DNA of 61,312 bases, counting the filler. It is 6 parts of 6 records of this genome, joined end to end, with 100 filler letters (N's around TTAATTAATTAA, not from the genome) between each part and the next. Parts side by side here need not be neighbours in the genome. Positions count along the whole stretch, not along the records: positions 25,704 to 41,107 come from DRR723986_703; 5 more parts are not named here. The stretch is one strand, 5' to 3'. A program made the position numbers and the translations under genes. This document shows positions 25,704 to 58,704 of the stretch, in pieces (within the stretch, counting starts at the first letter, position 1; each line of letters begins with the position of its first letter). The notes under the pieces were generated by a model, which had not been told where the DNA came from, searched no databases, and worked only from the letters and a program-made list of their open reading frames with translations.

Positions 25704-26471
25704 CTGCCCCTCATGCCGCGCAGAGGCCGCGCCCCTCGGCGAGAGCGGCGGCGCGGTTGGCTTTGAAATGTGGTCTGCTGGAGAGGCTTCGTTCCTGGTT
25801 GAAGTGGTTTGAGACGGAGGCGTGGACGGCGGCGAATTTCTGTAAACTTCGCATCCTACGGAAACGGAGCATCGCCCGCTCTCGTCGTCGGAAAGGTAGG
25901 TGTGAATTTTCCGCCCGGTTGTTCAGCCAGCGGCCGGTTTCTTGGCGATCAGCCGCTCCAATTTCCTTCAGGGCGGCGCCGTAAGACCGAAGCCGATCCG
26001 TGACGATAACCTTGGGTTGTCCGTGCTTGCGCATTGCTTTTCTTAAGAATTTCAGCGCAGCTTTCTTGTCTCGTGTCTTCGTGACATAACTTTCCAGTAC
26101 CTCACCCTCGTGATCTACGGCCCGCCAGAGGTAATGCCGTTGGCCGTTGATCTTGACGAAAACCTCATCCAGATGCCAGCGCCACTGGCTGGATTTCATA
26201 CCTTCGATCCTGCGTTTTCGGATCTCGTTCGCGAACATCGGCCCGAACCGGTGCCACCAGAATCGGACGATTTCGTGGCTTACGTCCACGCCACGCTCGT
26301 GAAGCAAATCCTCGACATTCCGCAGCGAAAGCGGAACCGCACATAGAGCATTACGGCCAAGCGGATGATTTCGGGGCTCGTTTTGAACCACTTGAAAGGA
26401 CTGGGTTTCGTCATGAACGAACGCTACCGGCCGGCCGCTGCGGGCTCAAGGCAAGTTATTCTGACAGAGCC
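25704..26471 (-). mobile_element. IS6-family insertion sequence (other end beyond the contig edge)
   Basis: DDE transposase plus terminal sequence GGCTCTGTCAGAAT on the minus strand ending at 26471. Confidence 0.88.
25711..26414 (-). pseudogene. IS6 transposase with 1-bp deletion frameshift near codon 27
   Basis: MTKPSPFKWFKTSPEIIRLAVMLYVRF continues as PLSLRNVEDLL only after a frameshift; span of 704 nt is not a multiple of 3; WHLDE, YLWRAVD, TD, LNNRAENSH. Confidence 0.85.
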
Positions 26472-26558
26472 GTAATCTTTCTAACAAAACCAGCCAAGTT
26501 GTTCTGACAACGCCCTTTTGCAGAGCCTTGACATGTATCGGTCCAAGCTGCACTCTAG

Positions 26559-26589
26559 TTTGAACATTGTGTTCATTATTGAACTCTTG
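26559..26589 (+). promoter_or_regulatory. Putative IclR operator 1
   Basis: TTTGAACATTGTGTTCATTATTGAACTCTTG; 25/31 identical to 34214-34244; TTGACA at 26528. Confidence 0.75.
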
Positions 26590-26611
26590 AAGCTATCAGG
26601 CGACGGGAACG

Positions 26612-27490
26612 ATGCAAGAAACCGACACAGGATGCGTGAATGCTGCCGCGGAGTCCGGGCCAACGCCCGGGGTTTCGGCAGACATCACGTTTATTGCGCG
26701 GCCCGGGCCCGGACCTGTGGTCGTGTTCCTGCACGGTATCGGCTCGAACGCCACATCCTTCGCATCGATTTTCGAGCTTCTGCCGCCAAGGTTCAGCCTG
26801 ATTGCATGGAATGCACCGGGCTATTCAGGCTCTGCGCCTATGGCCATGGATTGGCCACTGCCGAACGACTACGCGGACAGGCTGGTTCAGATGCTGGACG
26901 GGCTTGACCTTGGGCCGGTGCATATTGTCGGGCACTCGCTCGGCACACTGATTGCCGCAGCCTTTGCGCGTCGTTCCCCTGACCGGCTGCTCAGCCTGAC
27001 GCTGGCCGCTGCCGCCAATGGCTACGGGGTGCCGCGCGGCGGGGTGCTGCCCGAAGGGGTGGGCAACCGGCTGACGGAACTGTCACGCCTGGGCCCGGCG
27101 GCCTTTGCCCATGCCCGCGCGGGCAATCTCGTGCATGAGCCTGCTTTGCATCCCGACATCGTGGCGCGGGTAGAGGCCGCAATGGCGCAAGTGAACCCGG
27201 ACGGCTACGCGCAGGCGGTCAGGATGCTGGCCTCTGGCGATCTGCCCGGCGATCTTGCCCGGGTTGCCGCGCGCCCCGGATTCATTGTCGGCATGCAGGA
27301 CCGGGTGACGCCGATTGCGCAGACACGCGCCGCGGCAAGGGCCTGGGAAGTGGCCCAGGGCATCCGGCCGACCATAACCGAAATCGACCAGGCGGGCCAT
27401 GCGGTCTACCTTCAGCGGCCCGGCGCGTTCTGTTCCGCGCTGTTGGATCATATGGGTCTTGCAACCGCCAGCAAGCCCGAGGGAACTTGA
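26612..27490 (+). CDS. Alpha/beta fold hydrolase
   Basis: FLHGIG, PGY, GHSLG nucleophile elbow, D.VTP, AGH. Confidence 0.92.
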   Translation: MQETDTGCVNAAAESGPTPGVSADITFIARPGPGPVVVFLHGIGSNATSFASIFELLPPRFSLIAWNAPGYSGSAPMAMDWPLPNDYADRLVQMLDGLDLGPVHIVGHSLGTLIAAAFARRSPDRLLSLTLAAAANGYGVPRGGVLPEGVGNRLTELSRLGPAAFAHARAGNLVHEPALHPDIVARVEAAMAQVNPDGYAQAVRMLASGDLPGDLARVAARPGFIVGMQDRVTPIAQTRAAARAWEVAQGIRPTITEIDQAGHAVYLQRPGAFCSALLDHMGLATASKPEGT

Positions 27491-27491
27491 G

Positions 27492-28400
27492 ATGACCGAA
27501 GACCTCAGATTGCACCACCTGCGCGGCATCGTGATGCGCGCGCCCGGAATAACGGCGACGTCGCCATTCTATACGGACCAATGGGGTCTGCACGTGGCCC
27601 ATGAAGCGGATGGGATCACCTATCTGCACGGAACCGGAGAGCAGCCCTTCATTTATGGTCTCAAGGACGACAGAACCTATGGCATCGAATACATCCATTT
27701 CGGCATGCCGGACCGCGATGGCGTTGACAGGCTCTATCGGCAATTGGAGGAAAAGGGCGCGGATCTGCGCGGGGCGCCGGGTGAATTCGACGGGCCCTTC
27801 GGCGGCTACGGATTCGAGGTGGCCGACCCCGACAATCGCCGCCTGCGCATCACCTCCGAAATTGCGCTGCGCGAGGCCGACGATGTTCATGCCTATCCGC
27901 GCAAGATCAGCCATGTGGTTCTGAACACGCCCGACATGGACGGGATGCAAAGCTGGTACGAGCAGATGCTGGGCTTTCGCACCAGCGACTATTCCGCGGA
28001 CCAGATGGTGTTTCTGCGGATCGGCAGCGACCACCACGCCATCGCGCTGGTTCGTGCGCAATATCCCTCGATCAATCACGTCGCATTCGAGATGCCCGGC
28101 ATCGACAGCTTCATGCGCGGCATCGGCCGGATGAAGCAGAAGGGGCAGGTACCAAGCTGGGGACCGGGGCGGCACGGGCCGGGCAACAATCCGTTTGCCT
28201 ATTTTGTTTCTCCTTCGGGCTTCGTGATCGAGTTCACCTCCGAGGTGCAGCAGATCGACGAGGAAACGCATGAGCCAAAGGTCTGGTCGCGCACCGACCC
28301 CGAGGCGATGGACCAGTGGATGACAGCGGGCCCACCGACACCGGCACAGCGCGCGGTCATGGCCGGGCGGCCCGACCCAGGCTTTCCAAAGGAAGGCTGA
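27492..28400 (+). CDS. VOC family protein, probable extradiol ring-cleavage dioxygenase
   Basis: Two VOC domains; HVV, HHAIA, NHVAF, GPGRHGPGNNPFAYF, IEF metal-ligand motifs. Confidence 0.85.
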   Translation: MTEDLRLHHLRGIVMRAPGITATSPFYTDQWGLHVAHEADGITYLHGTGEQPFIYGLKDDRTYGIEYIHFGMPDRDGVDRLYRQLEEKGADLRGAPGEFDGPFGGYGFEVADPDNRRLRITSEIALREADDVHAYPRKISHVVLNTPDMDGMQSWYEQMLGFRTSDYSADQMVFLRIGSDHHAIALVRAQYPSINHVAFEMPGIDSFMRGIGRMKQKGQVPSWGPGRHGPGNNPFAYFVSPSGFVIEFTSEVQQIDEETHEPKVWSRTDPEAMDQWMTAGPPTPAQRAVMAGRPDPGFPKEG

Positions 28401-28403
28401 GCG

Positions 28404-29195
28404 ATGGATCTGGGACTCAAAGACCGCTCGATCGCGGTCACTGGCGGAACTTCCGGGATCGGGCTGGCATCTGTGCGCGTCTTTCTGGAGGACGGTGCGC
28501 GGGTGGCGCTTTGTGCCCGCGGGGCAGAACGTCTGGATTCCGTGGTGGCGGACCTGTCCCGTGACTTCGGGGCGGACCGGGTTCTGGGGCGCGTGGTCTC
28601 TGTGCTGGATGCAGCCGCGGTCTCAGAATTCGCCGATGAGGTACGGCAGACCTTCGGAGGCTGCGACGCCCTTGTCACGAATGCGGGCCAGGGGCGAGTC
28701 TCGACCTATGCCGATACCGGCGACGCTGACTGGCGCGAAGAGTTGGAGCTGAAGTTTTTCAGCCAGCTTCACCCGATACGCGCCTTTGAAACGATGCTGC
28801 GCCAAAGCGGCAGCGGTGCCATCGTCGCGGTGAATTCGCTTCTCGCCCTCCAGCCAGAACCGCATATGGTCTGTACCTCGGCCGCACGTGCCGGCGTTCA
28901 GAACCTCTTGAAATCGCTGGCGACGGAACTGGCACCGCAGATCCGCGTCAATTCAATCCTGTTGGGGCTGGTGGACAGCGCCCAGTGGCAGCGCCGCTTC
29001 GAGGCGCGCGAGGACAAGGGCCAGAGCCGGGAAGACTGGTTCGCGGCACTGGCAAGCGTGAAAGGCATCCCGCTCGGCCGTCTTGGTCAACCTCAGGAAC
29101 CCGCGAGAGCCATCGCCTTCCTCGCCTCACCCGCCGCCAGCTACATCACCGGCGCCAAGCTTGAAATCTCGGGCGGCGTATCGCGCTTTGCTTGA
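28404..29195 (+). CDS. SDR family oxidoreductase
   Basis: TGGTSGIG, NAG, IRVNSI, YITG; catalytic YxxxK position reads TSAAR. Confidence 0.9.
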   Translation: MDLGLKDRSIAVTGGTSGIGLASVRVFLEDGARVALCARGAERLDSVVADLSRDFGADRVLGRVVSVLDAAAVSEFADEVRQTFGGCDALVTNAGQGRVSTYADTGDADWREELELKFFSQLHPIRAFETMLRQSGSGAIVAVNSLLALQPEPHMVCTSAARAGVQNLLKSLATELAPQIRVNSILLGLVDSAQWQRRFEAREDKGQSREDWFAALASVKGIPLGRLGQPQEPARAIAFLASPAASYITGAKLEISGGVSRFA

Positions 29196-29219
29196 TCCCT
29201 GACGAAAGACCCAAACCCC

Positions 29220-30869
29220 ATGACCCAGACCGTTGGCCACCAGATTGCCCAGGCGCTTGCCGATGCGGGCGTAACGACCATGTTCGGCGTCATTTCGATC
29301 CATAACATGCCGATCCTCGACGCGGTGGCGGAACAGGGGCGTATCCGCTTCATTCCGGCGCGTGGCGAGGCGGGGGCGATGAATATGGCCGACGCCTTTT
29401 CCCGCGTCTCGGGGCAGTTGGGCGTGGCGCTGACCTCGACCGGGACGGCGGCAGGCAATGCAGCGGGCGCACAGGCCGAGGCGCTGACGGCGGGCAGCCG
29501 GGTGCTGCATCTGACCACACAGATCGACCGGCCTTACATGGACCGGGACCGCGCCGCGATTCACGATGTGCCCAAGCAGCCAGAAATGTTGCGCGGGGTG
29601 TCCAAGGCCGTGTTCCGCATCTGGGACGAAACCGGCGTCCTGGGCACGCTGTCGGCAGCGATCCGCGCGGCGATGACACCGCCAACCGGGCCGGTCAGCC
29701 TTGAGATTCCGGTCGACGTGCAGCGCATTCCCGCCGTTTCCGGGCTGCCCCTGACCCCTCCGCGCCCGGCCTTGCCACCGGTGGAGGAGACCTCTCTCGA
29801 TCTGCTGGCTGAGCAGGTGAAGGTCGCGAAACGGCCGATGATCTGGCTTGGCGGCGGGGCGCGGGGGGCCGGAGCCGAGGCGCTGGAACTTGTCGAACGC
29901 GGCTTTGGCGCTGTTAGCTCCACCCAGGGGCGCGCCATTGTCCCCGAAAGCCACAAGGGCACGCTCGGAGCCTTCAACATGACACCCGAGGCGGAAGCCG
30001 TCTATCAAAGCTGCGACCTGATGATCGTGGTCGGCTCGCGGCTTCGGGGCAACGAAACACGCAACAACAAGATGCCGCTGCCGCGCCCGCTGTTCCAGAT
30101 CGACGTGGAGCCGACACAGGGCGGACGCAATTACCCGGTGGACGGATTCCTGTGCGGAGATGCTGCGGCAACGCTGCGCGGCTTGCTGGACCGGTTGCCG
30201 GGCACGCTCGGCACCGACCCGCAGTTGCATTACGACATCGCCGTTGCCCGCGCGAAATCGGAAGGTGCGCTGCGCGGGCGCCTTGGCCCCTATCAGGTGG
30301 TGGCCGATCACCTTCTGTCGGTGGTGCCGCAAGGGGGGCATCCCTGGGTGCGCGATGTGACGATCTCGAACTCCACGTTCGGCAACCGATATGTTCACAT
30401 CGCCGCGCCTCATCTGGGTGTCCACGCCCTCGGGGGCGGCATTGGGCAGGGGATTGCCATGGCCATCGGGGCCGCGGCGGGATCGGAGTCGCGCACCATC
30501 GCACTGGTAGGCGATGGTGGTGCGCAGCTCGGGATTGCCGAACTGATCACGGCGGTGGATGCGGCTCTGCCGATCACGTTCGTGCTGATGAACGATGCGG
30601 CATACGGCGTGATCGAGAACATCCAGGACGCGCAATATGACGGGCGGCGGCATTATTCCAAGCTCAAGACGCCCGATTTCGGCGTGCTGTGCCAGTCCAT
30701 CGACATGCCTCATGTCCGCGTTGGCCGGATCGAGGACTTTCCTCAGGCCCTAGACGCGACCCTTGGCCGGGACGGTCCCGCGGTCGTCGAAGTCGACATG
30801 GTCGCCATTGGCCCCTTCGCGGAATCCTTCGCAGGACCGCCCGCAGGGGCTGCGGGTGGCAAGACATGA
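29220..30869 (+). CDS. Thiamine-diphosphate-dependent enzyme (acetolactate synthase/decarboxylase-like)
   Basis: RGE conserved Glu, GPVSLEIP.D, GDGG-x24-N TPP motif. Confidence 0.9.
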   Translation: MTQTVGHQIAQALADAGVTTMFGVISIHNMPILDAVAEQGRIRFIPARGEAGAMNMADAFSRVSGQLGVALTSTGTAAGNAAGAQAEALTAGSRVLHLTTQIDRPYMDRDRAAIHDVPKQPEMLRGVSKAVFRIWDETGVLGTLSAAIRAAMTPPTGPVSLEIPVDVQRIPAVSGLPLTPPRPALPPVEETSLDLLAEQVKVAKRPMIWLGGGARGAGAEALELVERGFGAVSSTQGRAIVPESHKGTLGAFNMTPEAEAVYQSCDLMIVVGSRLRGNETRNNKMPLPRPLFQIDVEPTQGGRNYPVDGFLCGDAAATLRGLLDRLPGTLGTDPQLHYDIAVARAKSEGALRGRLGPYQVVADHLLSVVPQGGHPWVRDVTISNSTFGNRYVHIAAPHLGVHALGGGIGQGIAMAIGAAAGSESRTIALVGDGGAQLGIAELITAVDAALPITFVLMNDAAYGVIENIQDAQYDGRRHYSKLKTPDFGVLCQSIDMPHVRVGRIEDFPQALDATLGRDGPAVVEVDMVAIGPFAESFAGPPAGAAGGKT

Positions 30870-31675
30870 GCCTTGGGCATGTGGTGATCATCGGGTTCGG
30901 CGCGATAGCCCGAGACCTGATAGATATTCTGGGCGCGCAGACCTCCGCGCCCGAGAAAGTGACCGTCCTTGTGCGTCCCGGGCGAGAGGCAGAGCTTCGC
31001 GCGATGCTGGGGGCAGACATCTCGGTGACATCGGATCTTGCGGCGCTGCTAGCGACGTGCCCCGATGTGGTCGTGGAATGTGCCGGTCATCGCGCGGTGG
31101 CGCATTACGGTGCGACGGTGCTGGAAAGCGGCACGGACCTGATCCTTGCCTCTGTCGGCGCATTGGCGGATGCCGATCTGGCCCGCGAACTTGAGGCAGC
31201 CGCCCGCACTTCTGGCGCGCAATGCGTCGTGCCTGCCGGGGCTATTGGCGGAATAGATGCTCTAGGCGCGGCGCGCCTGTCGGGGCTGACTTCGGTTTGC
31301 TACACCGGCACGAAGCCGCCCGCCGCATGGGTCGGAACCCCAGCCGAGGAGGTGACCGACCTTGCGGCCTTGACAGCTCCCCTGACATTCTTCGAAGGGA
31401 CTGCGCGAGAAGCTGCGCGGTGCTTTCCCAAGAACGCCAATGTCGCTGCAACCCTGGCGATGGCCGGGCTGGGAATGGACAAGACCGAGGTGCGCCTTGT
31501 CGCAGACCCCGGCACAACGGAAAACACACATGCCTTCAGCGTGGCGTCGCAGGCCATGGAGTTTTCCATGCTACTGGTCGGAAAGCCGTCGCCAGACAAC
31601 CCCAAAACCTCTCGATCCACCGTTTACAGCATCGCACGTGCCGTCATGAACCGGCGCGCCGCGATCGCCATCTGA
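30866..31675 (+). CDS. nadX: L-aspartate dehydrogenase-like protein (NadX family)
   Basis: GFGAI, VECAGH, SVGAL, GAIGG.D, FPKNANVAA, NPKTS. Confidence 0.88.
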   Translation: MSLGHVVIIGFGAIARDLIDILGAQTSAPEKVTVLVRPGREAELRAMLGADISVTSDLAALLATCPDVVVECAGHRAVAHYGATVLESGTDLILASVGALADADLARELEAAARTSGAQCVVPAGAIGGIDALGAARLSGLTSVCYTGTKPPAAWVGTPAEEVTDLAALTAPLTFFEGTAREAARCFPKNANVAATLAMAGLGMDKTEVRLVADPGTTENTHAFSVASQAMEFSMLLVGKPSPDNPKTSRSTVYSIARAVMNRRAAIAI

Positions 31676-31682
31676 GGGCACC

Positions 31683-33161
31683 ATGGAGCAGACATTTCGC
31701 GACAACCGGATCTTTGTCGGCGGCATCTGGCAAGCAGGGCGCGGCGCACCGATCACCTCGAATTTCGCCGCAGAGGGTTGTGTGAACACCGTGATAAACG
31801 GCGCTTCGGCGCAGGATGTGGACCTTGCCATCGCCCGCGCGCGGGCCGCGCAACCATCCTGGGGGGCGCTGAAGCCGCACGATCGCGCGACGGTGCTGTA
31901 CCGCATCTCGGAGCGGATCGCCGCCAATATAGAGCGTATCGCCTGGGTGCAGAGCCGGGATACGTCCAAGACGCTGACGGAAACGCGCGCGCTTGCGGCC
32001 TCGGCGGCGGCAACCTTCCGCTATTTCGCGGCCGTGGCGGAAACCTCGGACGACCTGCTGACCGTGCCACGCGGCGATTACATCACCGCCTCTGTCCACG
32101 AGCCGCTTGGGCTGGTCGCGGCGATCACGCCGTGGAATTCACCCATTGCTTCCGACGCCCAGAAAATCGCCCCTGCCCTCGCTGCGGGCAATGCGGTGCT
32201 GCTGAAACCGGCCAGTTGGTCGCCACTGATCAGCCTTGAGCTTGCACAGATCGCCGAAGAGGCGGGCCTGCCCCAGGGACTGTTGTCCGTCCTGCCCGGA
32301 TCCGGGCGCGAGGTTGGCAATCTGCTGGTCGAACACCGGGATATTGCCAAGGTCTCGTTCACCGGGGGCACCGCAACGGGGCGTAGATTGGCCCATGCGG
32401 CGGCGGAAAAGCTGATGCCCGTTTCGCTGGAACTGGGGGGCAAGTCGCCCACGATCGTGTTCGAGGATTGCGACATCGATCTTGCCATCGCGGGGATCCT
32501 GTTCGGCATCTTCTCGTCTTCCGGCCAAAGCTGCATCGCCGGATCGCGCCTGTTCGTGCAGCGCAGCATCTACGACACTTTCACTGAGCGACTGGTCGCC
32601 GCTACGCAGGCATTGGTGGTCGGCCATCCCTTTGACGCGGCAACGCAGGTGTCGTCGCTGGTTCACCACGATCATCGCGAAAGCGTGGAGCGCTATGTGG
32701 CCATGGCGCGCGATGAAGGCGGAGACATCCTGTGCGGTGGCGCGCGGCCCGAGGATACGGCGCAAAAAGACGGTGCCTATTACCTGCCAACCATCATCGG
32801 CGGGCTCGACAACACCGCACGGACCTGCCGTGAAGAGATTTTCGGTCCGGTGCTGGTGGTGATGCCCTTCGAGGACGAGGCCGATGTGATCGCGCAGGGC
32901 AACGACAATGACTACGGCCTGGCGTGCGGCATCTGGTCGACCGATCACCGCCGCTGCCAGCGAGTCGCCCGCGCCATCCGGGCGGGCACGGTCTGGATTA
33001 ACACCTACAAGCAATTCTCGATCTCGACGCCCTTCGGTGGCGATGGTGACAGCGGCATGGGCCGCGAAAAAGGCCGCGCGGGTCTTCGGGCCTATCAACG
33101 GCAGAAGTCGATCTACGAAGATTTGTCGGGGCAGCCGCATCCCTGGGCCAGATGGCCTTAG
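31683..33161 (+). CDS. Aldehyde dehydrogenase
   Basis: ITPWN, FTGG, LELGGKSP, GQSC, EEIFGPV, PFGG. Confidence 0.95.
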   Translation: MEQTFRDNRIFVGGIWQAGRGAPITSNFAAEGCVNTVINGASAQDVDLAIARARAAQPSWGALKPHDRATVLYRISERIAANIERIAWVQSRDTSKTLTETRALAASAAATFRYFAAVAETSDDLLTVPRGDYITASVHEPLGLVAAITPWNSPIASDAQKIAPALAAGNAVLLKPASWSPLISLELAQIAEEAGLPQGLLSVLPGSGREVGNLLVEHRDIAKVSFTGGTATGRRLAHAAAEKLMPVSLELGGKSPTIVFEDCDIDLAIAGILFGIFSSSGQSCIAGSRLFVQRSIYDTFTERLVAATQALVVGHPFDAATQVSSLVHHDHRESVERYVAMARDEGGDILCGGARPEDTAQKDGAYYLPTIIGGLDNTARTCREEIFGPVLVVMPFEDEADVIAQGNDNDYGLACGIWSTDHRRCQRVARAIRAGTVWINTYKQFSISTPFGGDGDSGMGREKGRAGLRAYQRQKSIYEDLSGQPHPWARWP

Positions 33162-33313
33162 CGACGTCCTCTCAGGGCCTTGCCCGGCACGCGCGACGGT
33201 TCCGCCTCTCGCCCGCCACCTCGCGCCTTGCACCGGCATCGTGTGGGGCAAGCAGACACGATATGTCGAGCCTCGATCTGACTTGCGGCAGCAGTCTTCA
33301 GGCGATCCGCCGG

Positions 33314-34120
33314 TCAGGTTTCGCCCCTTGGCACGGTGTAGCCCAAGGCAGCGGAGGCCCTGCGCGCAGCAGATGTGACCGCGTCGATCAGGGCGCAATC
33401 GCGTCCCGACCCACCGGCGGAGAACCGCGCCTCGGGGCCGGAAACGTTGATGCCTCCCACCACCTGCCCGGTATGATCGAAGATTGCCGCGGCACAGGAC
33501 CCGATGCCCGCCTCGAAATTCCCCTCGCTCCAGGCGAAGCCTTCGGCCTTGTCATGGTGGGCCTGACGAATGATCGCCTCGATCGTCTGCGGTGTCTTGT
33601 CGGTTGCAGGCTCGGGCAGGTCGCCCGAGAAGATCTGCCGCAATTGCGTGTCGGAAGTCTCCGCCAGAATGGCACGCCCGATGGACGACGCATGGGCCGA
33701 CAGCCGCGACCCGGTGCGCACGTTGCTGACGAGATGAGAATTGGGGGCCTCGCGTCCCAGATAGATGATGTCGCGCCCGTCCAGTACGCCCAAATGGGCG
33801 GACATGCCGGTGTCGCGGCACAGATCTCTCAGGATAGGCTGGCAGACCTGGACCATGTCCCGCCCCTGAATGGCCTGCGCACCAAGACTGACCAGCCCCG
33901 CCCCCAGACGATAGCCGCCACCATCGCCGAGTTCCTCGATCATGCGATGATCCGCAAGGGTATGGATCAGGCGGATCAGGGTCGTGCGATTGATTCCGAG
34001 ATCGCGCGACACCGTCGACAGGTTACGCGCCCGATTGCCTGCACCGATGTAGTGCAGAAGTTTCAGGGCCCGCTCCACCGGGGGAACGGAATAGGGGGTC
34101 TGGGAGGCAGTGTCGCCCAT
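33314..34120 (-). CDS. IclR family transcriptional regulator
   Basis: N-terminal HTH (VERALKLL...RTTLIRL), YRLG, HASSIGRAILA, INVSGP. Confidence 0.93.
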   Translation of the reverse strand: MGDTASQTPYSVPPVERALKLLHYIGAGNRARNLSTVSRDLGINRTTLIRLIHTLADHRMIEELGDGGGYRLGAGLVSLGAQAIQGRDMVQVCQPILRDLCRDTGMSAHLGVLDGRDIIYLGREAPNSHLVSNVRTGSRLSAHASSIGRAILAETSDTQLRQIFSGDLPEPATDKTPQTIEAIIRQAHHDKAEGFAWSEGNFEAGIGSCAAAIFDHTGQVVGGINVSGPEARFSAGGSGRDCALIDAVTSAARRASAALGYTVPRGET

Positions 34121-34213
34121 GCGAATAATCCTGTCCTTCAGGCTGAGCGGGTTGTCGGCGCAAGGACCCGCTCAGCGGAAAACTATTGACCGCACGGGGC
34201 CGCATAACCTATC

Positions 34214-34244
34214 TTTGAACATATAGTTCAATATAGAACACTTG
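34214..34244 (+). promoter_or_regulatory. Putative IclR operator 2
   Basis: TTTGAACATATAGTTCAATATAGAACACTTG, overlapping TTGACC(34186)-N18-TATCTT in the iclR/monooxygenase divergent region. Confidence 0.75.
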
Positions 34245-34264
34245 GCAATAGCAAAGGGGCGCGG

Positions 34265-35428
34265 GTGACACTTTCTATCGGCATATGTGGTGGCGGAATC
34301 GGGGGCCTGTGCGCTGCCATCGCGCTTGGCCGCGCAGGGCACGATGTTCAGGTGTTCGAGAAGGCGCGGTCGATCAACCGGGTCGGCGCAGATATCAACC
34401 TGACGCCGAACGCGGTCTTCGCACTGGATCAACTGGGCGTTGGCGCCTACCTGCGCGACAGCGCTGCCCGCCCCAGCTTTCGCATCAGCCGCGATGGCAT
34501 TAGCGGCGAGGAAACCTCGCGCCTGCCAATGAGCGCGGCGGCCGAGGAAAAATACGGCGCACCGCAGCTGACGATCCACCGGGCCGACCTGCTGGATGCC
34601 CTGCGGGCGCAATTGCCCGAGGACAGGTTCCAGCTTGGCCGCGAGGCCGTGTCCCTGCGCCTCGATGACGGCAAGGCGGAACTGGGATTTGCCGATGGCA
34701 CCAGCGCGGCTTTCGATCTGGTGATCGGCGCGGACGGCATTCATTCGGTCGTGCGCACGGCGCTTTGGGGCGAAGACCATCCACGCTATACCGGCATGGT
34801 GTCCTATCGCGGGACATTCCCGCGCGACAAGGCCGCCGGGCTTCGCGATGCAGATGCCTTCACCAAGTGGTGGGGCGAGATGCCGGAAAAGCAGATCGTG
34901 ACCTTCCCCCTCACCCAGGGCCGGGACATCTTCGTCTTTGCCACCTTGCCACAGGAAGAATGGTCCGAAGAAGGCTGGACATTGCCCGGCGATGTGGAAG
35001 AGCTGCGCCGCGCCTATGCCAATTTCCACGAAGACGCCCGCAAACTGCTGGATGCGCTGGATGAGGTCACGCGCTCTGCGCTGCATGTGCGCGATCCGAT
35101 GCCGCAATGGGCCAAGGGGCGCGCGACGCTTCTGGGGGACGCCGCGCATCCGATGGTGCCCTTCATGGCACAGGGGGCCTGCATGGCCATCGAAGATGCG
35201 GTGGTGCTGGCCCGTGCACTGGACAGTGACCCCGACGATATCGACGCCGCGCTCACGCGGTATGAGACGGAACGCAAGCCCCGCACCGCGCGGGTCCAGG
35301 AAAGCTCGCTTGCCAATGACTGGCTCAAGAAAGCCGGCAATGCGGATTGGGTCTATGGCTACAATGCCTGGACCACACCGCTCAATGATACCAATCACAA
35401 CGGGAGTTCCCATGAAACACGTGTTTAG
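34265..35428 (+). CDS. Group A flavin-dependent monooxygenase (salicylate hydroxylase/NicC-like)
   Basis: GGGIGG, IHRADL, IGADGIHS, LLGDAAHPMVPFMAQGACMAIED. Confidence 0.9.
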   Translation: MTLSIGICGGGIGGLCAAIALGRAGHDVQVFEKARSINRVGADINLTPNAVFALDQLGVGAYLRDSAARPSFRISRDGISGEETSRLPMSAAAEEKYGAPQLTIHRADLLDALRAQLPEDRFQLGREAVSLRLDDGKAELGFADGTSAAFDLVIGADGIHSVVRTALWGEDHPRYTGMVSYRGTFPRDKAAGLRDADAFTKWWGEMPEKQIVTFPLTQGRDIFVFATLPQEEWSEEGWTLPGDVEELRRAYANFHEDARKLLDALDEVTRSALHVRDPMPQWAKGRATLLGDAAHPMVPFMAQGACMAIEDAVVLARALDSDPDDIDAALTRYETERKPRTARVQESSLANDWLKKAGNADWVYGYNAWTTPLNDTNHNGSSHETRV

Positions 35429-36383
35429 CACCGCTTTGGTTGCGGCGAGTCTTGCCATTGCCGCTCCGGCTTTCGCCGATCCGGTCCAGATCAATGCCGT
35501 GACACTGGCCCCTCGGGCCGTCTATATCACCCAGCCCTTCGCGCAATTCGTGGAGGAAGTGAACGAGCGCTTCGCAGGCGAGATCGAGATCACCTGGCGG
35601 GGTGGCCCCGAGGTCATGCCACCGTTCGGGCAGGCCGAAGGCGTTCGCAACGGTGCCATGGGGATGACCTATACCAGCCCCAGCTACTACCAGGGCCTTG
35701 TGCCGACATCGGGCACGATGAACCTGTCCTTCCTGAACTACGAAGCAATCGCCGCCACCGACTACCACGAGCGGATGACCGAGCTTCACGCCGAACAGGG
35801 CCTTGCCTTCATCGGCGAGATCCCGGCCACGCAACTGAATTTCCAGATCTACATGGGCGACGAAGTCACCAGCCTTGCGGATCTCGAAGGGCAGCGCATC
35901 CGTGTCTTCCCGACGCTTCTGCCTCTGGTTCAGGCCCTTGGCGCGGAGCCGATCGTTCTGCCCATGCAGGAGATCTACACAGCGCTGGAACGCGGCACCA
36001 TCGACGGGTTCATGCAAGGCCCGCTCGGTCAGGCAGCACAGTTCGAGGGCCTAGTTTCGACGGTCATCCAGCCCGGTGTCTACCGTGCCGGTTTCCCGGT
36101 GCTGATGAACATGGACCTGTTCAACGAAATGTCGCCGGATCTTCAAGAGCGCTTCGTCACATTCCTGCGTGAAGATTTCGCGCCCCGGATGGACAATATC
36201 TGGGCCGACGACATCGCGACCGAGCGCGCTGCGCAAGAGGCTGCCGGGTTCAACTATCTCATGCTGCCCGAAGAAGAGGCCGCCCGCTACGAAGCGATGG
36301 CCATGGACGCGGCATGGGAGATGACAGCCGAGAATGCCGGTGCCGAAATCGCCGCCGAGCTTCGCGAGATGCTGGATCGCTGA
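35412..36383 (+). CDS. dctP: TRAP transporter substrate-binding protein DctP
   Basis: Signal peptide, GGPE, DLEGQRIRV, LGA.P, EIYTALERGTIDG. Confidence 0.92.
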   Translation: MKHVFSTALVAASLAIAAPAFADPVQINAVTLAPRAVYITQPFAQFVEEVNERFAGEIEITWRGGPEVMPPFGQAEGVRNGAMGMTYTSPSYYQGLVPTSGTMNLSFLNYEAIAATDYHERMTELHAEQGLAFIGEIPATQLNFQIYMGDEVTSLADLEGQRIRVFPTLLPLVQALGAEPIVLPMQEIYTALERGTIDGFMQGPLGQAAQFEGLVSTVIQPGVYRAGFPVLMNMDLFNEMSPDLQERFVTFLREDFAPRMDNIWADDIATERAAQEAAGFNYLMLPEEEAARYEAMAMDAAWEMTAENAGAEIAAELREMLDR

Positions 36384-36455
36384 TAGCCTGACGAAACACG
36401 CAATTCGGCGGAGGCGGTTTTCCGGCTCCGCCCGCGGCAAAACGGAAGGCCTCAG

Positions 36456-36956
36456 GTGGATCGGACCCTCACCAAGCTACGGCGAGTCTTCAGCGCCTTG
36501 AACCTGATTTGTGCCGTGATCGGGGCATGTCTGCTGTTCATGATCGCATCAATCATCTGCTTCGAGGTCACCATGCGCTGGCTTGGTGCCGGGTCGCAGC
36601 TCTGGGTGATCGAGGCCAGTGAATACTCGCTGCTGTTCATCACCTTTCTCGGCGCTCCCTATCTTCTGCAAAGGAACCTGCATGTGGTCATGGATCTGGT
36701 CTATGCCAGCCTAGCCGGGCGGCCGCGCGTGGCGCTGCAACTGGTCAACGCGACAATCGGCTTCGTGCTTTGTGCGGTTCTCGCCGTGGTCGGCGTCAGC
36801 GTCGTGATCGAACAGTTCGAACTGGGCGTCCGGCAAGTGACCGTGATGCGGCCGCAAAGCTGGTGGATCACCGCTGCCCTACCGATCGGAATGGGGCTGA
36901 TGGCCGTGCAATTTCTCGATCAGATCGTCCGCACCCTTCGAGGGGAGCTTGTCTGA
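36456..36956 (+). CDS. dctQ: TRAP transporter small permease DctQ
   Basis: 4 TM, W..E..EY, HVVMD. Confidence 0.9.
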   Translation: MDRTLTKLRRVFSALNLICAVIGACLLFMIASIICFEVTMRWLGAGSQLWVIEASEYSLLFITFLGAPYLLQRNLHVVMDLVYASLAGRPRVALQLVNATIGFVLCAVLAVVGVSVVIEQFELGVRQVTVMRPQSWWITAALPIGMGLMAVQFLDQIVRTLRGELV

Positions 36957-36959
36957 GCG

Positions 36960-38276
36960 ATGGAATGGTATGTCACGCTCAGCATTATCCTGATCCCGCT
37001 TTTCATCCTGATGTTGATGGGGTTGCCGGTCGCCTTTTCCTTTCTCGCCGTAAATCTGGTCGGGTCCTACATCCTGATGGGTGGATTTTCGGGGATCGAG
37101 CAACTGGTTCTCAACACCGTCGGTTCCGTGACCAGTTTCACCCTGATCCCGATTGCCCTGTTCATGATCATGGGCGAGGCGATGTTCCGGTCCGGCATTG
37201 CGATCGAACTGATGGACACGCTGGACAAATGGTTCGGCAAGGTGCGCGGTCGCCTCGCGCTGATGGCCGTTGGCGGCGGCGTTCTGTTTTCGACCCTGAC
37301 GGGCAATTCCATGGGCTCCATTGCATTGTTGGGGTCTTCCCTGACGCCAGAGATGGAAAAGCGTGGCTATGCCAAGTCGATGTCGCTCGGTCCCATTCTC
37401 GGGTCCTCCGGCCTCGCGATCATGATCCCGCCCTCTTCGCTGGCGGTGGTTTTGGGGGTGATCGGCGATATCTCCATCGGTCGTATCCTGATCGGCATCA
37501 TCGTGCCGGGATTCGTGATGGCGCTGCTCTATGTCCTCTACATTCTCGGCCGCTGTCATCTGCAGCCGCATCTGGCCCCCACTTTCGACATCCCGAAAGT
37601 CAGCCTGGGCGAGAAACTGCTGGCAACAGGCATCAACATCGTGCCGCTTTCGCTGATCGTCTTTTCGGTCGTCGGCGTCATCTTCCTGGGCATCGCCACG
37701 CCCAGTGAAGCCGCCGCGACAGGCGCTTTCGCGACGCTGCTGCTTGCCGCGCTGCGCCGCCGACTGACACCGAAAGTGTTCGGAGAGACGATTTTTTCCA
37801 GCGCCAACATCTCTGTCATGGTGCTGTTGATCGTATCCGGCGCGGTCACCTTCTCGCAGTTGATGGCCTTCACCGGGGCCACCTACGGAATGGTCGATGC
37901 GGTTCTGAGTCTCGACATTTCGGATCACGCGATTGTCTTCATGATGATCATGCTGGTGGTGTTCATGGGGATGTTCATGGGACCGCTGCCAATCATGCTG
38001 ATCACGCTGCCGATCTTTGTGCCCGTCGTGCAGCAGTTCCAGATGGACCTGATCTGGTTCGCCGCCCTGTTTCTTGTCGCGATCGAAACCGGGGCGACCT
38101 CGCCGCCATTCGGGGCGGCGCTGTTCGTGATGAAGGCGGTGGCCCCCAAGGGAACGACCATGGGCGACATCTACCGCGCGGCGGTGCCCTTCATCCTGCT
38201 GGACCTGCTGGCGATCCTGCTGATCTTCTTCATTCCGGAGTTGGTAACCTACCCGGTCGACCTGATGTTCCGATGA
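36960..38276 (+). CDS. dctM: TRAP transporter large permease DctM
   Basis: 12 TM, GLPVAF, MIPPS, ATPSEAAA, SPPFG. Confidence 0.93.
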   Translation: MEWYVTLSIILIPLFILMLMGLPVAFSFLAVNLVGSYILMGGFSGIEQLVLNTVGSVTSFTLIPIALFMIMGEAMFRSGIAIELMDTLDKWFGKVRGRLALMAVGGGVLFSTLTGNSMGSIALLGSSLTPEMEKRGYAKSMSLGPILGSSGLAIMIPPSSLAVVLGVIGDISIGRILIGIIVPGFVMALLYVLYILGRCHLQPHLAPTFDIPKVSLGEKLLATGINIVPLSLIVFSVVGVIFLGIATPSEAAATGAFATLLLAALRRRLTPKVFGETIFSSANISVMVLLIVSGAVTFSQLMAFTGATYGMVDAVLSLDISDHAIVFMMIMLVVFMGMFMGPLPIMLITLPIFVPVVQQFQMDLIWFAALFLVAIETGATSPPFGAALFVMKAVAPKGTTMGDIYRAAVPFILLDLLAILLIFFIPELVTYPVDLMFR

Positions 38277-39835
38277 GCCGCCCGAACGTCCTTGTGATCA
38301 TGACCGATCAACAGCGTGCCGATCACCTCGGCTGCTATGGCAACAGGATCGTGCGGACACCCAATATCGACGCGCTGGCCGCGCGGGGGACTCGGTTTGA
38401 CCGGTTCTACGTCGCCAACCCGATCTGCCAGCCCAACCGCGCCGCCCTCGCCACGGGGCAACTGACCTCTGTCAACGGCTGCCGTCAGAACGGTATTCCC
38501 CTCGGACTGGACTGCACGACCTACGCAGACGTGCTGCGCGCGGCAGGCTATCGAACGGGGCTGGTTGGCAAGGCGCATTTCCAGAACGTATCCCCGGTGC
38601 CCGCGCGTATGCCCACAGCCGCGGGAAACGGGGCAGCGCCAGCCACCCCCTTCGATCTGGCACGCAGAAGCCAACGTCGCGGCCCCGACTACGAGCACGA
38701 GATTCGCACAGGCTGGATCGACAACCCGGACCGAGAGGTGCCAACCCCCTATTACGGCTTCGACCATCTGCGGCTGTGCATCGGCCATGGCGACCAGGTG
38801 GAGGGGCATTACACCGGCTGGCTGCGCGACCGGCTGAACGGCGCGCCCGATCCGCGCGGGCGCAAGGCGGCGCTTGGCACGGACGCCAATGACACGCCGC
38901 AGGTGTGGCGCACGGCGGTGCCCGAAACACTGTATCCCACGGCTTTTGTGGGCGAGGAGGCCTGCACCTTCCTGCAAGATCAGAGCAATGATCCCTTCCT
39001 TCTGGTAGCGTCCTTCCCCGACCCGCATCACCCGTTCACGCCACCGGGCCGCTATTTCGACATGTATGACCCAGCCGATATCCCCCTGCCCGAAAGCTTC
39101 GGCCATCGGACCGCGGCCCGCACCGACCTGCCAGAACATATCCAGCGGGTCTACGAGATCGGGGCCGAAAAGCCCGATGCCTATTGGCCGTTCCACAGCG
39201 ACGCCGAGGCCACACGCCGAATGATCGCGCTCAACTATGGTGCGATTACCATGATCGACGACTGGGTCGGCCGGATCCTGGACACGCTGGCACGAAGCGG
39301 CAAGGCGGCAAACACCATTGTCATCTTCATGTCCGATCACGGCGATTACATGGGGGACCATGGCACGGTGCTCAAACACGGACTGCACAGTCACGGACTG
39401 ATCCGCGTGCCGCTGATCTGGGCCGATACACGACGCGAGGCGGGAGTATCGTCTGTGCAGGGCAGTGCTATCGACTTCGCGCCCACCCTTCTGCAAAGCG
39501 CCGGTCTGAAATGTCCCGTTGGCATGCAGGGGCGTGACCTGCTGGCAGAAGATGCGGAAAACCTGCCAGTGCTGATCGAGGATTCCGGCCTTGCCTTCGC
39601 CAGTGGCGACGGGCGCACCGCAAGCCGGACGCTGGTTCATGACGGCTGGCGGATGACCGTTTTCGAGGGCTCGGAGCTAGGCGAATTATTTGATCTGGAG
39701 GCGGATCCGCACGAGTTGTCGAACCTCTGGTCCGATCCGGGCTCTGCCGACCGGCGGGCGGCCATAATGCAGCAGCTTGCCCTGCGCATGATCGCGCTCC
39801 GCGACACGTCCATCCTACCCACACATCAGGCCTAG
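38273..39835 (+). CDS. Formylglycine-dependent sulfatase
   Basis: PNVLVIMTDQQR, CQPNR (CxPxR), GKAH, DPHHP, SDHGD; no signal peptide. Confidence 0.92.
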   Translation: MSRPNVLVIMTDQQRADHLGCYGNRIVRTPNIDALAARGTRFDRFYVANPICQPNRAALATGQLTSVNGCRQNGIPLGLDCTTYADVLRAAGYRTGLVGKAHFQNVSPVPARMPTAAGNGAAPATPFDLARRSQRRGPDYEHEIRTGWIDNPDREVPTPYYGFDHLRLCIGHGDQVEGHYTGWLRDRLNGAPDPRGRKAALGTDANDTPQVWRTAVPETLYPTAFVGEEACTFLQDQSNDPFLLVASFPDPHHPFTPPGRYFDMYDPADIPLPESFGHRTAARTDLPEHIQRVYEIGAEKPDAYWPFHSDAEATRRMIALNYGAITMIDDWVGRILDTLARSGKAANTIVIFMSDHGDYMGDHGTVLKHGLHSHGLIRVPLIWADTRREAGVSSVQGSAIDFAPTLLQSAGLKCPVGMQGRDLLAEDAENLPVLIEDSGLAFASGDGRTASRTLVHDGWRMTVFEGSELGELFDLEADPHELSNLWSDPGSADRRAAIMQQLALRMIALRDTSILPTHQA

Positions 39836-39839
39836 ACCC

Positions 39840-41021
39840 ATGCAGAACACTCCCCTCAATATCCTGATCGTCGGCGGAGGTATCGCAGGTTGCTGCGCGG
39901 CCATTGCATTGACGCAAGAAGGTCACCGGGTTCGAATCGTTGAAAAACAGGATGCCTGGCGGTTCCAGAGCTCGGGCATCTTCGTCTATGCCAACGGCCT
40001 TGTCAGCCTGCGCAGGCTTGGCCTTCTCGAGGGTATTCTTGCGGCGGGCTTTGCTGTGCCCGAGGGGCGCAACGCCTATTTCGACCATCTCGGTCAGCCG
40101 ATCATGGACACGTTCTACCCGGCTGCGGACGGGGGCCAGATCCCTTCAATCCTCGGGATCAAGCGGGCCGAGATGCACCGTGTCATGGCGGCACGGGTGA
40201 ACGCCCTGGCCGTGCCAATACACCTGGGCACCACGGTGAAAGCGCTCGAAGAGGGGGCCGAAGGCATCACGGCCACGCTGTCGGATGGCAGCGCGGAACG
40301 CTTCGATCTCGTGATTGGTGCCGACGGGGTGCGTTCGTCGGTACGGGCGATGATTGGTATCGACATTGCCCCGCGATATACCGGGGTCGGTGTCTGGCGG
40401 TCCGTGCATCGCAGACCGGCAGGGCTGACCGACAAGATCATGATGATGGGCCCCGCCAAGCGTTTCGGCATCATGCCGATCAGCGATGACCTGCTTTATA
40501 CGTTCGGAACCGTGGCCGAACCGGAAGACAGCCACTACGCGCCTGCCGATTGGCCCCGGTTGATGGCCGAACGCTTCGCCGAGTTCTGCGACCCCGCAGC
40601 GCCCTTCCTCGGGGAATTGGATGCCCAGTCCGAGCTGCTCTTCACCAAGATCGAGGAAATCGTCCTGCCCTTGCCATGGCACAAGGGGCGGGTTCAGTTG
40701 ATAGGCGATGCGGCCCACGCCTCGACCCCGTTCATGGGGCAAGGGGGCGCGATGGCCATGCAGGATGCCGTGGTTCTGGCCGATGCACTCGCCGCCCATG
40801 ACACGCTTGAAACGGCGCTGGCGGCGTTCGGACAGGCGCGGTTTCCGGTCTGTGCCTTCGTGCAGGATGTCTCTCGCGCCGTGGGAGAGGCCGGGGCGCA
40901 AGAAACCGCAGGCGGTGCCGCCGAACGCCATGCCGAGATGCGTGCGACGGCGCAAGGGAAAGTGGACGGGTTCTATCGCAAGCTTGAGGACTTGACCGAA
41001 GCGGGCCGTTTTCGACGCTGA
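39840..41021 (+). CDS. Second FAD-dependent monooxygenase/oxidoreductase
   Basis: GGGIAG, IGADGVRS, IGDAAHASTPFMGQGGAMAMQD. Confidence 0.9.
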   Translation: MQNTPLNILIVGGGIAGCCAAIALTQEGHRVRIVEKQDAWRFQSSGIFVYANGLVSLRRLGLLEGILAAGFAVPEGRNAYFDHLGQPIMDTFYPAADGGQIPSILGIKRAEMHRVMAARVNALAVPIHLGTTVKALEEGAEGITATLSDGSAERFDLVIGADGVRSSVRAMIGIDIAPRYTGVGVWRSVHRRPAGLTDKIMMMGPAKRFGIMPISDDLLYTFGTVAEPEDSHYAPADWPRLMAERFAEFCDPAAPFLGELDAQSELLFTKIEEIVLPLPWHKGRVQLIGDAAHASTPFMGQGGAMAMQDAVVLADALAAHDTLETALAAFGQARFPVCAFVQDVSRAVGEAGAQETAGGAAERHAEMRATAQGKVDGFYRKLEDLTEAGRFRR

Positions 41022-41107
41022 GAACGCCTAGCCCGGCAAGCGCAGCCGCCCCGATATCTCCGCCTCCAGGTGGTTCAGGGCGCCGACCCCTGCCCCGGCG
41101 GTCCAGA

Positions 41108-44373: not shown

Positions 44374-44383
44374 GGTGAGGAAC

Positions 44384-58403: not shown

Positions 58404-58704
58404 GGGCCGCGCCCGGTCCCTGCGGCCCGGCTACCCTCGCGGGGGAACTGGCACGGCTCGCCGCCACGCTTGCAGCCTGCGGGGAGGCCACCGACACCCT
58501 CCCTTCTCCGCGCCACCGAGGCACCGGCAGGCATCTGGCAGCCTTCGCCGACACGCCTTCCGCCTGCTGACAGACACCGCCCTCCACCGAGCACCCGAGG
58601 CACCGGCATGGGATGTGGCAGCCTTCGCAGTGACGCCTCCCACATGCCGGGAGGCTAACGACACCGCCCTCCACCGCGCCACAAAGCCCTGCGGCACGGC
58701 ACCG
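58304..58704 (+). repeat. Four degenerate copies of the kinase gene 3' end
   Basis: Core GACACCGCCCTCCACCG at 58353, 58573 and 58660, variant at 58493; 58444-58498 mirrors 58304-58358; 58686-58704 equals 58380-58398. Confidence 0.85.

Follow-up and report, generated by a model that had tools for sequence, protein, structure and literature searches.

A conserved, IclR-linked gene cluster from a relative of Nioella, probably involved in the catabolism of an aromatic carboxylic acid

The degradation of kynurenate, or 'quinoline' pathway, involves a 7,8-hydroxylase, a dihydrodiol dehydrogenase and 7,8-dihydroxykynurenate 8,8a-dioxygenase (EC 1.14.99.2, 1.3.1.18 and 1.13.11.10, respectively), and its classical biochemistry in pseudomonads reportedly goes back to the Hayaishi laboratory and to a study by Horibata and coworkers dating from 1961. 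To our knowledge, this pathway has been without assigned genes for about 60 years. The literature searched yielded no genes for the degradation of kynurenate or xanthurenate, no protein sequences for the EC numbers of the kynurenate pathway, and nothing on the bacterial use of xanthurenate or its sulfate. The 13-gene cluster analyzed here (genes A to M), which occupies one contig (DRR723986_703) in a 61,312-nucleotide stretch of DNA (filler included; referred to below as the window), probably serves for the catabolism of an aromatic carboxylic acid, most likely a two-ring acid with a nitrogen in one of its rings, under the control of an IclR-family protein.

In Pseudomonas aeruginosa, PA3504-PA3514 were presented in a preprint as one region including a short-chain dehydrogenase/reductase (SDR; PA3507), a regulator (PA3508), and an ATP-binding cassette (ABC) transporter protein (PA3512) (bioRxiv 10.1101/2025.04.03.646983), while a transposon-sequencing paper places PA3505 under nicotinate/nicotinamide metabolism and designates it a hypothetical gene of pyrimidine biosynthesis (PMC9732424). 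On the contig studied here, colinear genes encode a hydrolase (A), a vicinal oxygen chelate (VOC) dioxygenase (B), an SDR (C), a thiamine diphosphate (ThDP) enzyme (D), an aspartate dehydrogenase (E), and an aldehyde dehydrogenase (ALDH; F), along with an IclR gene (G) and an importer, the likeness to PAO1 being one of description only. The parallel with PA3505 drawn in the initial annotation therefore stands as far as the published description of PA3504-PA3514 goes. The gene-by-gene correspondence of that region with the core (hydrolase, VOC protein, SDR, ThDP enzyme, aspartate dehydrogenase, ALDH, and IclR regulator) is presumed.

Neither a functional assignment of the cluster nor a close match to a characterized pathway was found in the literature searched, which agrees with its initial description as an orphan. 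The system is an aromatic catabolic regulon of an ordinary kind, in an uncharacterized, widely conserved form, and its new element is the variant in which a tripartite ATP-independent periplasmic (TRAP) importer, a sulfatase (L), and a second flavin monooxygenase (FMO2, gene M) are present together.

Conservation and regulation of the cluster

The gene families were identified by performing Pfam and NCBIfam searches, after which the gene starts were refined. All the 13 families named in the initial annotation were found to be present, in the places and in the order given there (Table 1). The distances between genes amount to 1 nucleotide (nt) in the case of A/B, 3 nt in those of B/C and J/K, and 4 nt in that of L/M, while H and I overlap by 17 nt, and D/E and K/L overlap in an ATGA, the ATG of E overlapping the stop codon of D and that of L the stop codon of K.

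The conservation of the cluster was examined in the best 80 of 142 confirmed relatives, centered on D with 10 kb on either side, some of which end at contig ends; a gene was counted as present when tblastn gave a hit that covered half of the protein or more with an identity of 40% or higher. C and D are present in all 80 loci, A, B, and E in 72 each, F in 69, G in 66, H in 53, I in 30, J in 28, K in 29, L in 23, and M in 24. The complete A-F core occurs in 59 loci, 47 of which also carry H. All 13 genes are colinear and in the same orientation in 14 loci, belonging to Nioella, Roseicyclus, Dinoroseobacter, Maritimibacter, Pararhodobacter, Rhodobacter, and other Paracoccaceae. Since the same order and orientation are shared by these 14 loci from several genera of Rhodobacterales, the arrangement is far beyond chance.

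The importer varies: 28 of the loci have a TRAP system and 31 have an ABC system whose binding protein is NMT1/SsuA-like; no locus carries both. Among the loci examined, the variant with the TRAP importer, sulfatase, and FMO2 was found only in marine Rhodobacterales and in the single-cell genome of one gammaproteobacterium (L079), where K and L are present. In the Rhizobiales and Paracoccus variants, an ABC importer and genes for a Rieske oxygenase, a reductase, and a flavodoxin occur in place of the TRAP genes, L and M. The gene set of the ABC version, examples of which are an annotated plasmid of Paracoccus sp. MA and a Nitratireductor plasmid, encodes a bicupin, FMO1 (the first flavin monooxygenase, gene H), the ABC importer, the Rieske oxygenase, a second SDR (SDR2), A-F, an FAD/NAD reductase, a flavodoxin, a pentapeptide-repeat protein, and an IclR regulator. 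The clustering of 969 unassigned neighboring open reading frames (ORFs) yielded only more copies of pentapeptide, small cupin, IclR, reductase, and SDR genes. A single-domain cupin gene (about 181 amino acids, aa) lies near the core in 19 loci (L013, L014, L017, L018, L022, L028, L030, L032, and others), and this small cupin occurs in loci where either FMO2 or the sulfatase gene is missing from its usual place.

A site of the form GAAC-N5-GTTC-N6-GAAC occurs upstream of A and again between G and H (Table 1), and the 31-nt stretches surrounding the two copies agree at 25 positions. The extended motif has 107 matches in the 80 loci (1.55 Mb, both strands), where 0.18 would be expected; of the 72 loci with A, 27 have it ahead of this gene, of the 53 with H, 39 have it in the G/H region, and 23 loci have it at both places. 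In 13 loci, a shorter palindrome is found in front of the ABC operon as well. The product of G has both the HTH_IclR and the IclR_C domain, and the predicted site is repeated in both promoters. Since the same operator-like sequence precedes each of them, the A-F and H-M operons form one regulon with a putative IclR operator. The claim made at the outset that the two arms belong to one system is thus borne out by the common operator, the conserved colinearity, and the translational coupling.

It might be suggested instead that the two arms are unrelated, and that the TRAP importer, the sulfatase, and FMO2 serve to scavenge sulfur or carbon from a sulfate ester beside a core devoted to another compound. 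In line with this idea, the core is without L in 57 of the 80 loci, L and M each sometimes occur without the other, and a second, unrelated sulfatase paralog is present elsewhere in the window (7813-9027, minus strand, 29% identity). The operator common to both operons, which precedes both of them in 23 loci across genera, nevertheless makes unrelated substrates for the two arms unlikely. In 47 of the 59 complete A-F loci, the core is accompanied by H, the first gene of the operon ending in L and M; L overlaps K and is found with the TRAP genes in 21 of its 23 loci and with the ABC importer in none; and the 13-gene order persists down to about 65% protein identity. We therefore regard two unrelated arms as a decidedly improbable explanation.

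The cluster on the contig is incomplete: it corresponds to about two thirds of the real locus and includes two of its three operons, and five more genes are present in relatives. One metagenome contig, from run X10, extends 1184 nt beyond the contig end at 41107. In the Nioella sp. chromosome G001, the nearest complete genome, the DNA past M holds a convergent operon encoding a bicupin, a VanA-like Rieske oxygenase, SDR2, and a pentapeptide-repeat protein. The Rieske gene was located in ten further genomes carrying the TRAP/sulfatase version, and the DNA of nine of them was fetched, giving ten with G001. In all ten of these Rhodobacterales genomes, M is followed by the convergent pentapeptide-SDR2-Rieske-bicupin genes and then by a divergent second IclR gene, the product of which is 30-35% identical to G; in an eleventh genome (L019), M is the last gene before the contig end, the Rieske gene being located on a separate contig. 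No GAAC-N5-GTTC-N6-GAAC site precedes the cupin-Rieske operon in any of the ten. Since the third operon has its own divergent IclR paralog and no such site, the locus seems to comprise two regulatory circuits (L091-L099, L089). None of the extra genes of the relatives exceeds the cut-off of a named NCBIfam family; the nearest model to SDR2 is the SDR-type pyridoxal 4-dehydrogenase (201 vs. a cut-off of 325). The idea that FMO2 and the Rieske oxygenase are alternatives that exclude each other was rejected, since both occur together in the ten genomes, and the pattern that suggested it came from the 10-kb limit of the flanks.

Enzymes, importer, and a proposed pathway

Comparison of B with 1f1r, the Mn-dependent homoprotocatechuate dioxygenase MndD, showed that His155, His200, His214, Tyr257, and Glu267 are all identical in B, where they correspond by counting to His141, His182, His196, Tyr237, and Glu247, while Asn157 is replaced by Val. 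B has the 2-His-1-carboxylate metal site as well as the catalytic His and Tyr residues of the type I extradiol dioxygenases. On the strength of these residues, it is a credible extradiol dioxygenase, as had been claimed from the initial reading of this VOC gene. Its scores are below the cut-offs of the homoprotocatechuate (TIGR02295, 88.7 vs. 321.4) and catechol 2,3-dioxygenase (TIGR03211, 71 vs. 320.2) models, and its best relative from structural genomics, 3b59, is uncharacterized.

The best PDB match of FMO1 is NicC, the 6-hydroxynicotinate 3-monooxygenase (5eow; E 4e-81, 276 bits, residues 5-371). In NicC, His211 and Tyr215 have been reported to bind 6-hydroxynicotinate and His47 to be an active-site residue (PMC9304392). 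The assignment of FMO1 as a NicC ortholog was rejected, since in the alignment with 5eow His47, His211, and Tyr215 are replaced by Asn45, Gln210, and Phe214, respectively. FMO2 is nearest to the HpxO-like and MHPCO-type enzymes (E 1e-24 to 1e-30), and only generic 'FAD-dependent monooxygenase' clusters were found for it in the ESM Atlas.

As regards the other core enzymes, E exceeds the NCBIfam aspartate-dehydrogenase cut-offs (NF009828, 270.8 vs. 177; NF009827, 260.1 vs. 226), in keeping with its first description as a NadX-like protein, and is below that of TIGR03855, the NadX of NAD synthesis (174.2 vs. 206.55); neither nadA nor nadC is present on the cluster contig. The next-best named model for D is 5-guanidino-2-oxopentanoate decarboxylase, a 2-oxo-acid decarboxylase (227.8 bits, under the 500-bit cut-off). 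No PDB sequence match of A was found at E values of up to 1e-12.

The three components of a TRAP system (PF03480, PF04290, and PF06808) are encoded by consecutive genes, and the N-terminus of DctP is signal-peptide-like. Bpro_4736 of Polaromonas sp. JS666 (4mnc/4mni) is the best sequence match of DctP (E 2.5e-25); it is also the best structural match of an AlphaFold model based on an alignment of 24 sequences (pLDDT, the predicted local distance difference test score, 85.9), with a Z of 31 and a root-mean-square deviation of 3.1 over 296 aligned residues of the modeled protein, the Z of the next entry being 27.4. The ligand of 4mnc is, we assume, benzoylformate, an aromatic 2-oxo acid, and those of 4pgn and 4nap, the next relatives in terms of sequence, are presumably indole acids. 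Arg162 and Arg164 of DctP, the putative counterparts of the P-subunit arginine, are invariant in 24 orthologs and lie in the region where it is expected; the conserved arginine of TRAP P-subunits has been reported to pair with the carboxylate of the substrate (PMC4646407). The 72-nt gap between dctP and dctQ (36384-36455) holds a GC-rich, hairpin-like sequence (GGCGGAGGC...GCTCCGCC), which may be a stabilizer or attenuator raising the expression of the binding protein over that of the membrane subunits.

The sulfatase L carries the CxPxR nucleophile motif of the type I enzymes in its translation, in the form Cys52-Gln-Pro-Asn-Arg56. The sulfatase domain stands at the very start of the protein, so that there is no signal peptide, and L is cytoplasmic. 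Its best PDB matches are 4upl and 4upi (E about 1e-45); 4UPI is SpAS1, and SpAS1 and SpAS2 have been described as arylsulfatases in which choline-sulfatase activity was undetectable (PMC5870055). The scores of L are below the cut-offs of the NCBIfam arylsulfatase (NF010322, 244.4 vs. 481) and choline sulfatase (TIGR03417, 210.3 vs. 433.45) models. A gene for the formylglycine-generating enzyme (FGE) was found in G001 (252.8 bits), i.e., in the genome of a relative of the present strain. The formylglycine type, the lack of a signal peptide, and the arylsulfatases as nearest solved relatives all fit the cytoplasmic sulfatase initially proposed.

That L might be a phosphonate- or phosphate-monoester hydrolase, in which case the substrate would carry a phosphoester and not a sulfate, is a point on which the PDB matches are mixed. 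They include phosphonate monoester hydrolases (2w8s at E 4e-35, 2vqr, and 4upk), the NCBIfam PehA model gives 186 bits, and the arylsulfatase/phosphonate monoester hydrolase (AS/PMH) subgroup is called promiscuous in the literature (PMC5870055, among other sources). The matches with arylsulfatases and choline sulfatases are higher, however (158 to 151 vs. 125 bits in the PDB, and 244 bits with the NCBIfam arylsulfatase model), and a phosphoester substrate is very improbable indeed.

As to the proposal that the substrate is an aryl sulfate, the arylsulfatase-like character of L speaks for it, but the core mostly occurs without a sulfatase, and the full locus fits a compound with two rings. Because only 23 of the 80 core loci have the sulfatase gene, sulfation is a feeder specific to a lineage and does not define the pathway.

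With the third operon included, the locus encodes three hydroxylating oxygenases (the Rieske enzyme, FMO1, and FMO2) and two ring-cleavage-type dioxygenases (the VOC enzyme and the bicupin), besides a hydrolase, two SDRs, a 2-oxo-acid decarboxylase with an ALDH, and an amino-acid or imino-acid dehydrogenase. The presence of these three oxygenases and two dioxygenases points to a two-ring substrate rather than to a simple aryl sulfate, and the set as a whole is that required for a two-ring aromatic acid with a ring nitrogen. In the pathway that we propose, DctPQM would import the anionic substrate, possibly in an O-sulfated form in the marine Rhodobacterales version; L, matured by an FGE encoded elsewhere, would strip the sulfate to give a free ring hydroxyl; and FMO2 would hydroxylate the ring next to that hydroxyl, giving a catechol. 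In the case of the unsulfated parent compound, catechol formation would be carried out by the Rieske oxygenase and SDR2, which are encoded past the contig end in relatives. B might then open the first ring, and A, C, the putative decarboxylase D, and the ALDH F might trim the 2-oxo-acid side chain. FMO1 would hydroxylate the remaining hydroxypyridine-like ring, which the bicupin, also encoded past the contig end, would open, and E would either reduce the imino acid released or fix the ammonia of an imino acid, yielding an amino acid. The IclR regulator G would repress both operons at the GAAC-N5-GTTC-N6-GAAC sites until its effector binds. What the sequences themselves establish is the families, order, and conservation of the genes, the operator common to the two operons, the intact extradiol active site, and the intact nucleophile motif of the sulfatase, while the substrates and the sequence of reactions are proposals.

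Several points weigh against this two-ring scheme. FMO1 is without the substrate residues of NicC, so that a preference for hydroxypyridines is a matter of family resemblance only, and no enzyme of the cluster reaches the cut-off of an NCBIfam model that names a substrate. The third operon, with its own IclR gene and without the shared operator, may respond to something else, and in the present strain both this operon and the FGE are deduced from relatives. L and M are not strictly linked in the stretch examined around each core (both in 16 loci, L only in 7, and M only in 8). There are no tryptophan or kynurenine-pathway genes among the conserved neighbors, and the order in which the trimming of the side chain, the opening of the second ring, and the formation of the amino acid are placed follows from chemical reasoning and not from data.

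Among two-ring acids, the kynurenate-type quinoline-2-carboxylates are the leading, though tentative, candidate for the substrate family, and rather an unlikely one, with L and M serving to process a hydroxy-kynurenate in sulfated form, for instance xanthurenate 8-O-sulfate. This addition to the core would fit xanthurenate 8-O-sulfate because desulfation and then a single hydroxylation would lead straight to the 7,8-diol. The more specific proposal that this locus represents the genes of the kynurenate ('quinoline') pathway in their marine form, in which the TRAP-sulfatase-FMO2 part would be a shunt for a sulfated hydroxy-kynurenate, e.g., xanthurenate 8-O-sulfate, is quite unlikely to be correct as it stands.

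Algae and seagrasses make sulfated phenolic acids, and the substrate might be a single-ring compound of this kind (4-sulfooxybenzoate, 4-sulfooxyphenylacetate, zosteric acid, or tyrosine O-sulfate). Once the sulfate had been removed, an Ehrlich-type sequence from amino acid to 2-oxo acid, aldehyde, and acid would be catalyzed by E, D, and F, an FMO would make the catechol, and B and A would carry out a meta-cleavage resembling that of the homoprotocatechuate pathway. The facts that the nearest characterized relatives of B are homoprotocatechuate and catechol 2,3-dioxygenases, that the second-best model of F is HpaE and the nearest named model of D a 2-oxo-acid decarboxylase, and that near-identical DNA is present in metagenome runs from algae, seawater, and plastic surfaces are consistent with such a route. 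The matches with the Hpa models are far under the cut-offs, however (88.7 vs. 321 and 462 vs. 638), the hydratase and aldolase of the meta pathway are absent from the 13 genes and were not found among the conserved neighbors, and the bicupin, the Rieske oxygenase, and the two FMOs of the full locus exceed what a single ring would need. The core is also kept without the sulfatase in Rhizobiales, in Paracoccus, and, as the region is described in the preprint, in P. aeruginosa (bioRxiv 10.1101/2025.04.03.646983). A single-ring sulfated phenolic acid is thus a doubtful candidate, and the two-ring, nitrogen-containing acid is the reading that we prefer.

Contig layout, host, and other features

Reading of the junctions and scanning of the window showed that it consists of six contigs joined by five 100-nt spacers (44 N, TTAATTAATTAA, and 44 N), and that the 13-gene cluster occupies one whole contig, 25704-41107. 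Since this contig lies between two spacers, the apparent neighbors are not physically linked to the cluster: the hisC/tyrC-like genes on the upstream side, for an aminotransferase and a prephenate dehydrogenase, belong to other contigs, as does, on the downstream side, the gene for a pyruvate dehydrogenase E1, which seems to be 5'-truncated and without its N-terminus. The 'island' of the initial annotation is an assembly artifact, and whether the cluster is an island cannot be judged with artificial spacers on both flanks. An insertion of the cluster into aceE, bounded by IS6 elements, was likewise rejected, because the junctions are artificial spacers and there is no second copy of the insertion sequence (IS) in the window. 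Any gene-neighborhood argument drawn across the N/TTAATTAATTAA spacers of windows from this assembly would be invalid.

Table 1. Positions of the genes, operator-like sites, and spacers in the window.
Feature	Position	Strand	Remarks
Artificial contig spacers	9130-9229, 15347-15446, 25604-25703, 41108-41207, 53009-53108		N runs with TTAATTAATTAA linkers
Left contig spacer	25604..25703		Left end of cluster contig
IS6/IS240-family DDE transposase ORF, 226 aa	25711..26391	-	Pfam DDE_Tnp_IS240, E 4e-43; context, outside the pathway
Operator-like site 1, GAAC-N5-GTTC-N6-GAAC	26562..26584		50 nt upstream of A
A: alpha/beta-fold hydrolase, 292 aa	26612..27490	+	Distantly PcaD/MCP-hydrolase-like, under every NCBIfam cut-off
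B: two-domain VOC extradiol-type dioxygenase, 302 aa	27492..28400	+	Pfam; metal and catalytic residues kept
C: SDR	28404..29195	+	NCBIfam PRK07062, 389.5 bits vs. cut-off 266
D: three-domain ThDP enzyme	29220..30869	+	NCBIfam PRK07064, 752.8 bits vs. cut-off 495
E: aspartate-dehydrogenase-family protein, 269 aa	30866..31675	+	NAD_binding_3 and Asp_DH_C
F: NAD(P)-dependent aldehyde dehydrogenase	31683..33161	+	Best models BADH, then HpaE, both under cut-off
G: IclR-family regulator, divergent from H	33314..34120	-	HTH_IclR and IclR_C domains
Operator-like site 2, GAAC-N5-GTTC-N6-GAAC	34217..34239		G/H intergenic; 48 nt upstream of H and 97 nt upstream of G
H (FMO1): group A flavin monooxygenase, FAD_binding_3	34265..35428	+	Nearest solved relative NicC
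I: TRAP solute-binding protein DctP, 323 aa, signal peptide	35412..36383	+	PF03480
J: TRAP small membrane subunit DctQ	36456..36956	+	PF04290
K: TRAP large membrane subunit DctM	36960..38276	+	PF06808
L: cytoplasmic type I (formylglycine) sulfatase	38273..39835	+	PF00884, E 1.8e-45; Cys52-Gln-Pro-Asn-Arg56
M (FMO2): second group A flavin monooxygenase, FAD_binding_3	39840..41021	+	PRK06847-like, 340.8 bits vs. cut-off 372
Right contig spacer	41108..41207		Right end of contig, 86 nt past M

In blastn comparisons, homology to G001 extends from 26515 to the last base of the contig at about 94-95% identity, and the D protein is 98-99% identical to those of N. ostreopsis and N. sediminis; judging from these sequence identities, the source organism is therefore a relative of Nioella. 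The transposase ORF starts 8 nt from the first base of the contig. Two similar short sequences (AAGTT-R-TTCTGACA) occur at about 26451 and 26495 (region 26440-26514), just before the homology to G001 begins; they may be the terminal repeats of the IS, in which case this strain would have an IS upstream of the cluster at a distance of about 100 nt. Three estuary metatranscriptome runs contain short contigs (150-614 nt, 90-99% alike) covering parts of B, C, D, E, G, H/I, I, J/K, L, and M; their shares of sampled words are small (0.05-0.14) and DNA carry-over is possible, so that they are proof of neither transcription nor habitat.

As regards the rest of the window, the second sulfatase gene is located on another contig, reaching to within about 100 nt of its end, and was also picked up through a 51-nt inverted repeat that it forms with the first part of L. 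The E2 and E3 genes (43108-44373 and 44375-46132) both start with a lipoyl domain, that of E3 being N-terminal, and these domains form a 245-nt direct repeat (43110-43354 and 44380-44624, 75%). On the last contig, a 103-nt unit is present in three direct copies, 67-77% alike, at 58280-58689, in a region with about 75% G+C, and a 45-nt stretch within it resembles 41534-41578 inside the E1 gene.

Comparison with known systems

The six-enzyme core is kept in many Alphaproteobacteria, and the literature searched assigns no substrate to it. The marine version offers particularly direct handles on this substrate, namely a solute-binding protein, a regulator with a predicted operator, and a sulfatase that points to a sulfate-masked ring hydroxyl. 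If the substrate were found, a family of 'probable decarboxylase / hypothetical' annotations could be given names, the proteobacterial 'aspartate dehydrogenases' would have a physiological role, and a sulfated aromatic compound would join the known diet of the algae-associated roseobacters. If the kynurenate proposal were true, sulfated tryptophan-derived quinoline acids would be a currency of carbon, nitrogen, and sulfur between marine eukaryotes and roseobacters, and an enzyme of the aspartate-dehydrogenase family would naturally capture the imino acid resulting from the opening of a pyridine ring.

On paper, the kynurenate pathway resembles the full locus in several respects. Its NAD(P)H-dependent dihydroxylation would be matched by the Rieske oxygenase and its dihydrodiol dehydrogenase by an SDR; the extradiol cleavage, which yields a hydroxypicolinate with a 2-oxo-acid side chain, by the VOC protein; and the formation of amino-acid end products by the aspartate-dehydrogenase-like enzyme. 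The sulfatase and FMO2, by contrast, have no counterpart in the classical scheme.

The likeness to the other systems lies in single proteins. FMO1 and NicC are both group A flavin monooxygenases of the para-hydroxylating/decarboxylating clade, but the set formed by NicX, NicD, NicF, and NicE is not present here. DctP is only 22% identical to its best match, Bpro_4736. Like SpAS1 and SpAS2 of Silicibacter pomeroyi (4UPI/4UPL) and the choline sulfatase BetC, the cytoplasmic L with its CxPxR motif is a type I sulfatase of the AS/PMH subgroup; it differs from them in falling under the arylsulfatase and choline sulfatase cut-offs of NCBIfam. With respect to PA3504-PA3514 and its relatives, the present cluster differs in that a TRAP importer replaces the ABC importer, and that a cytoplasmic sulfatase and a second FMO have been appended.

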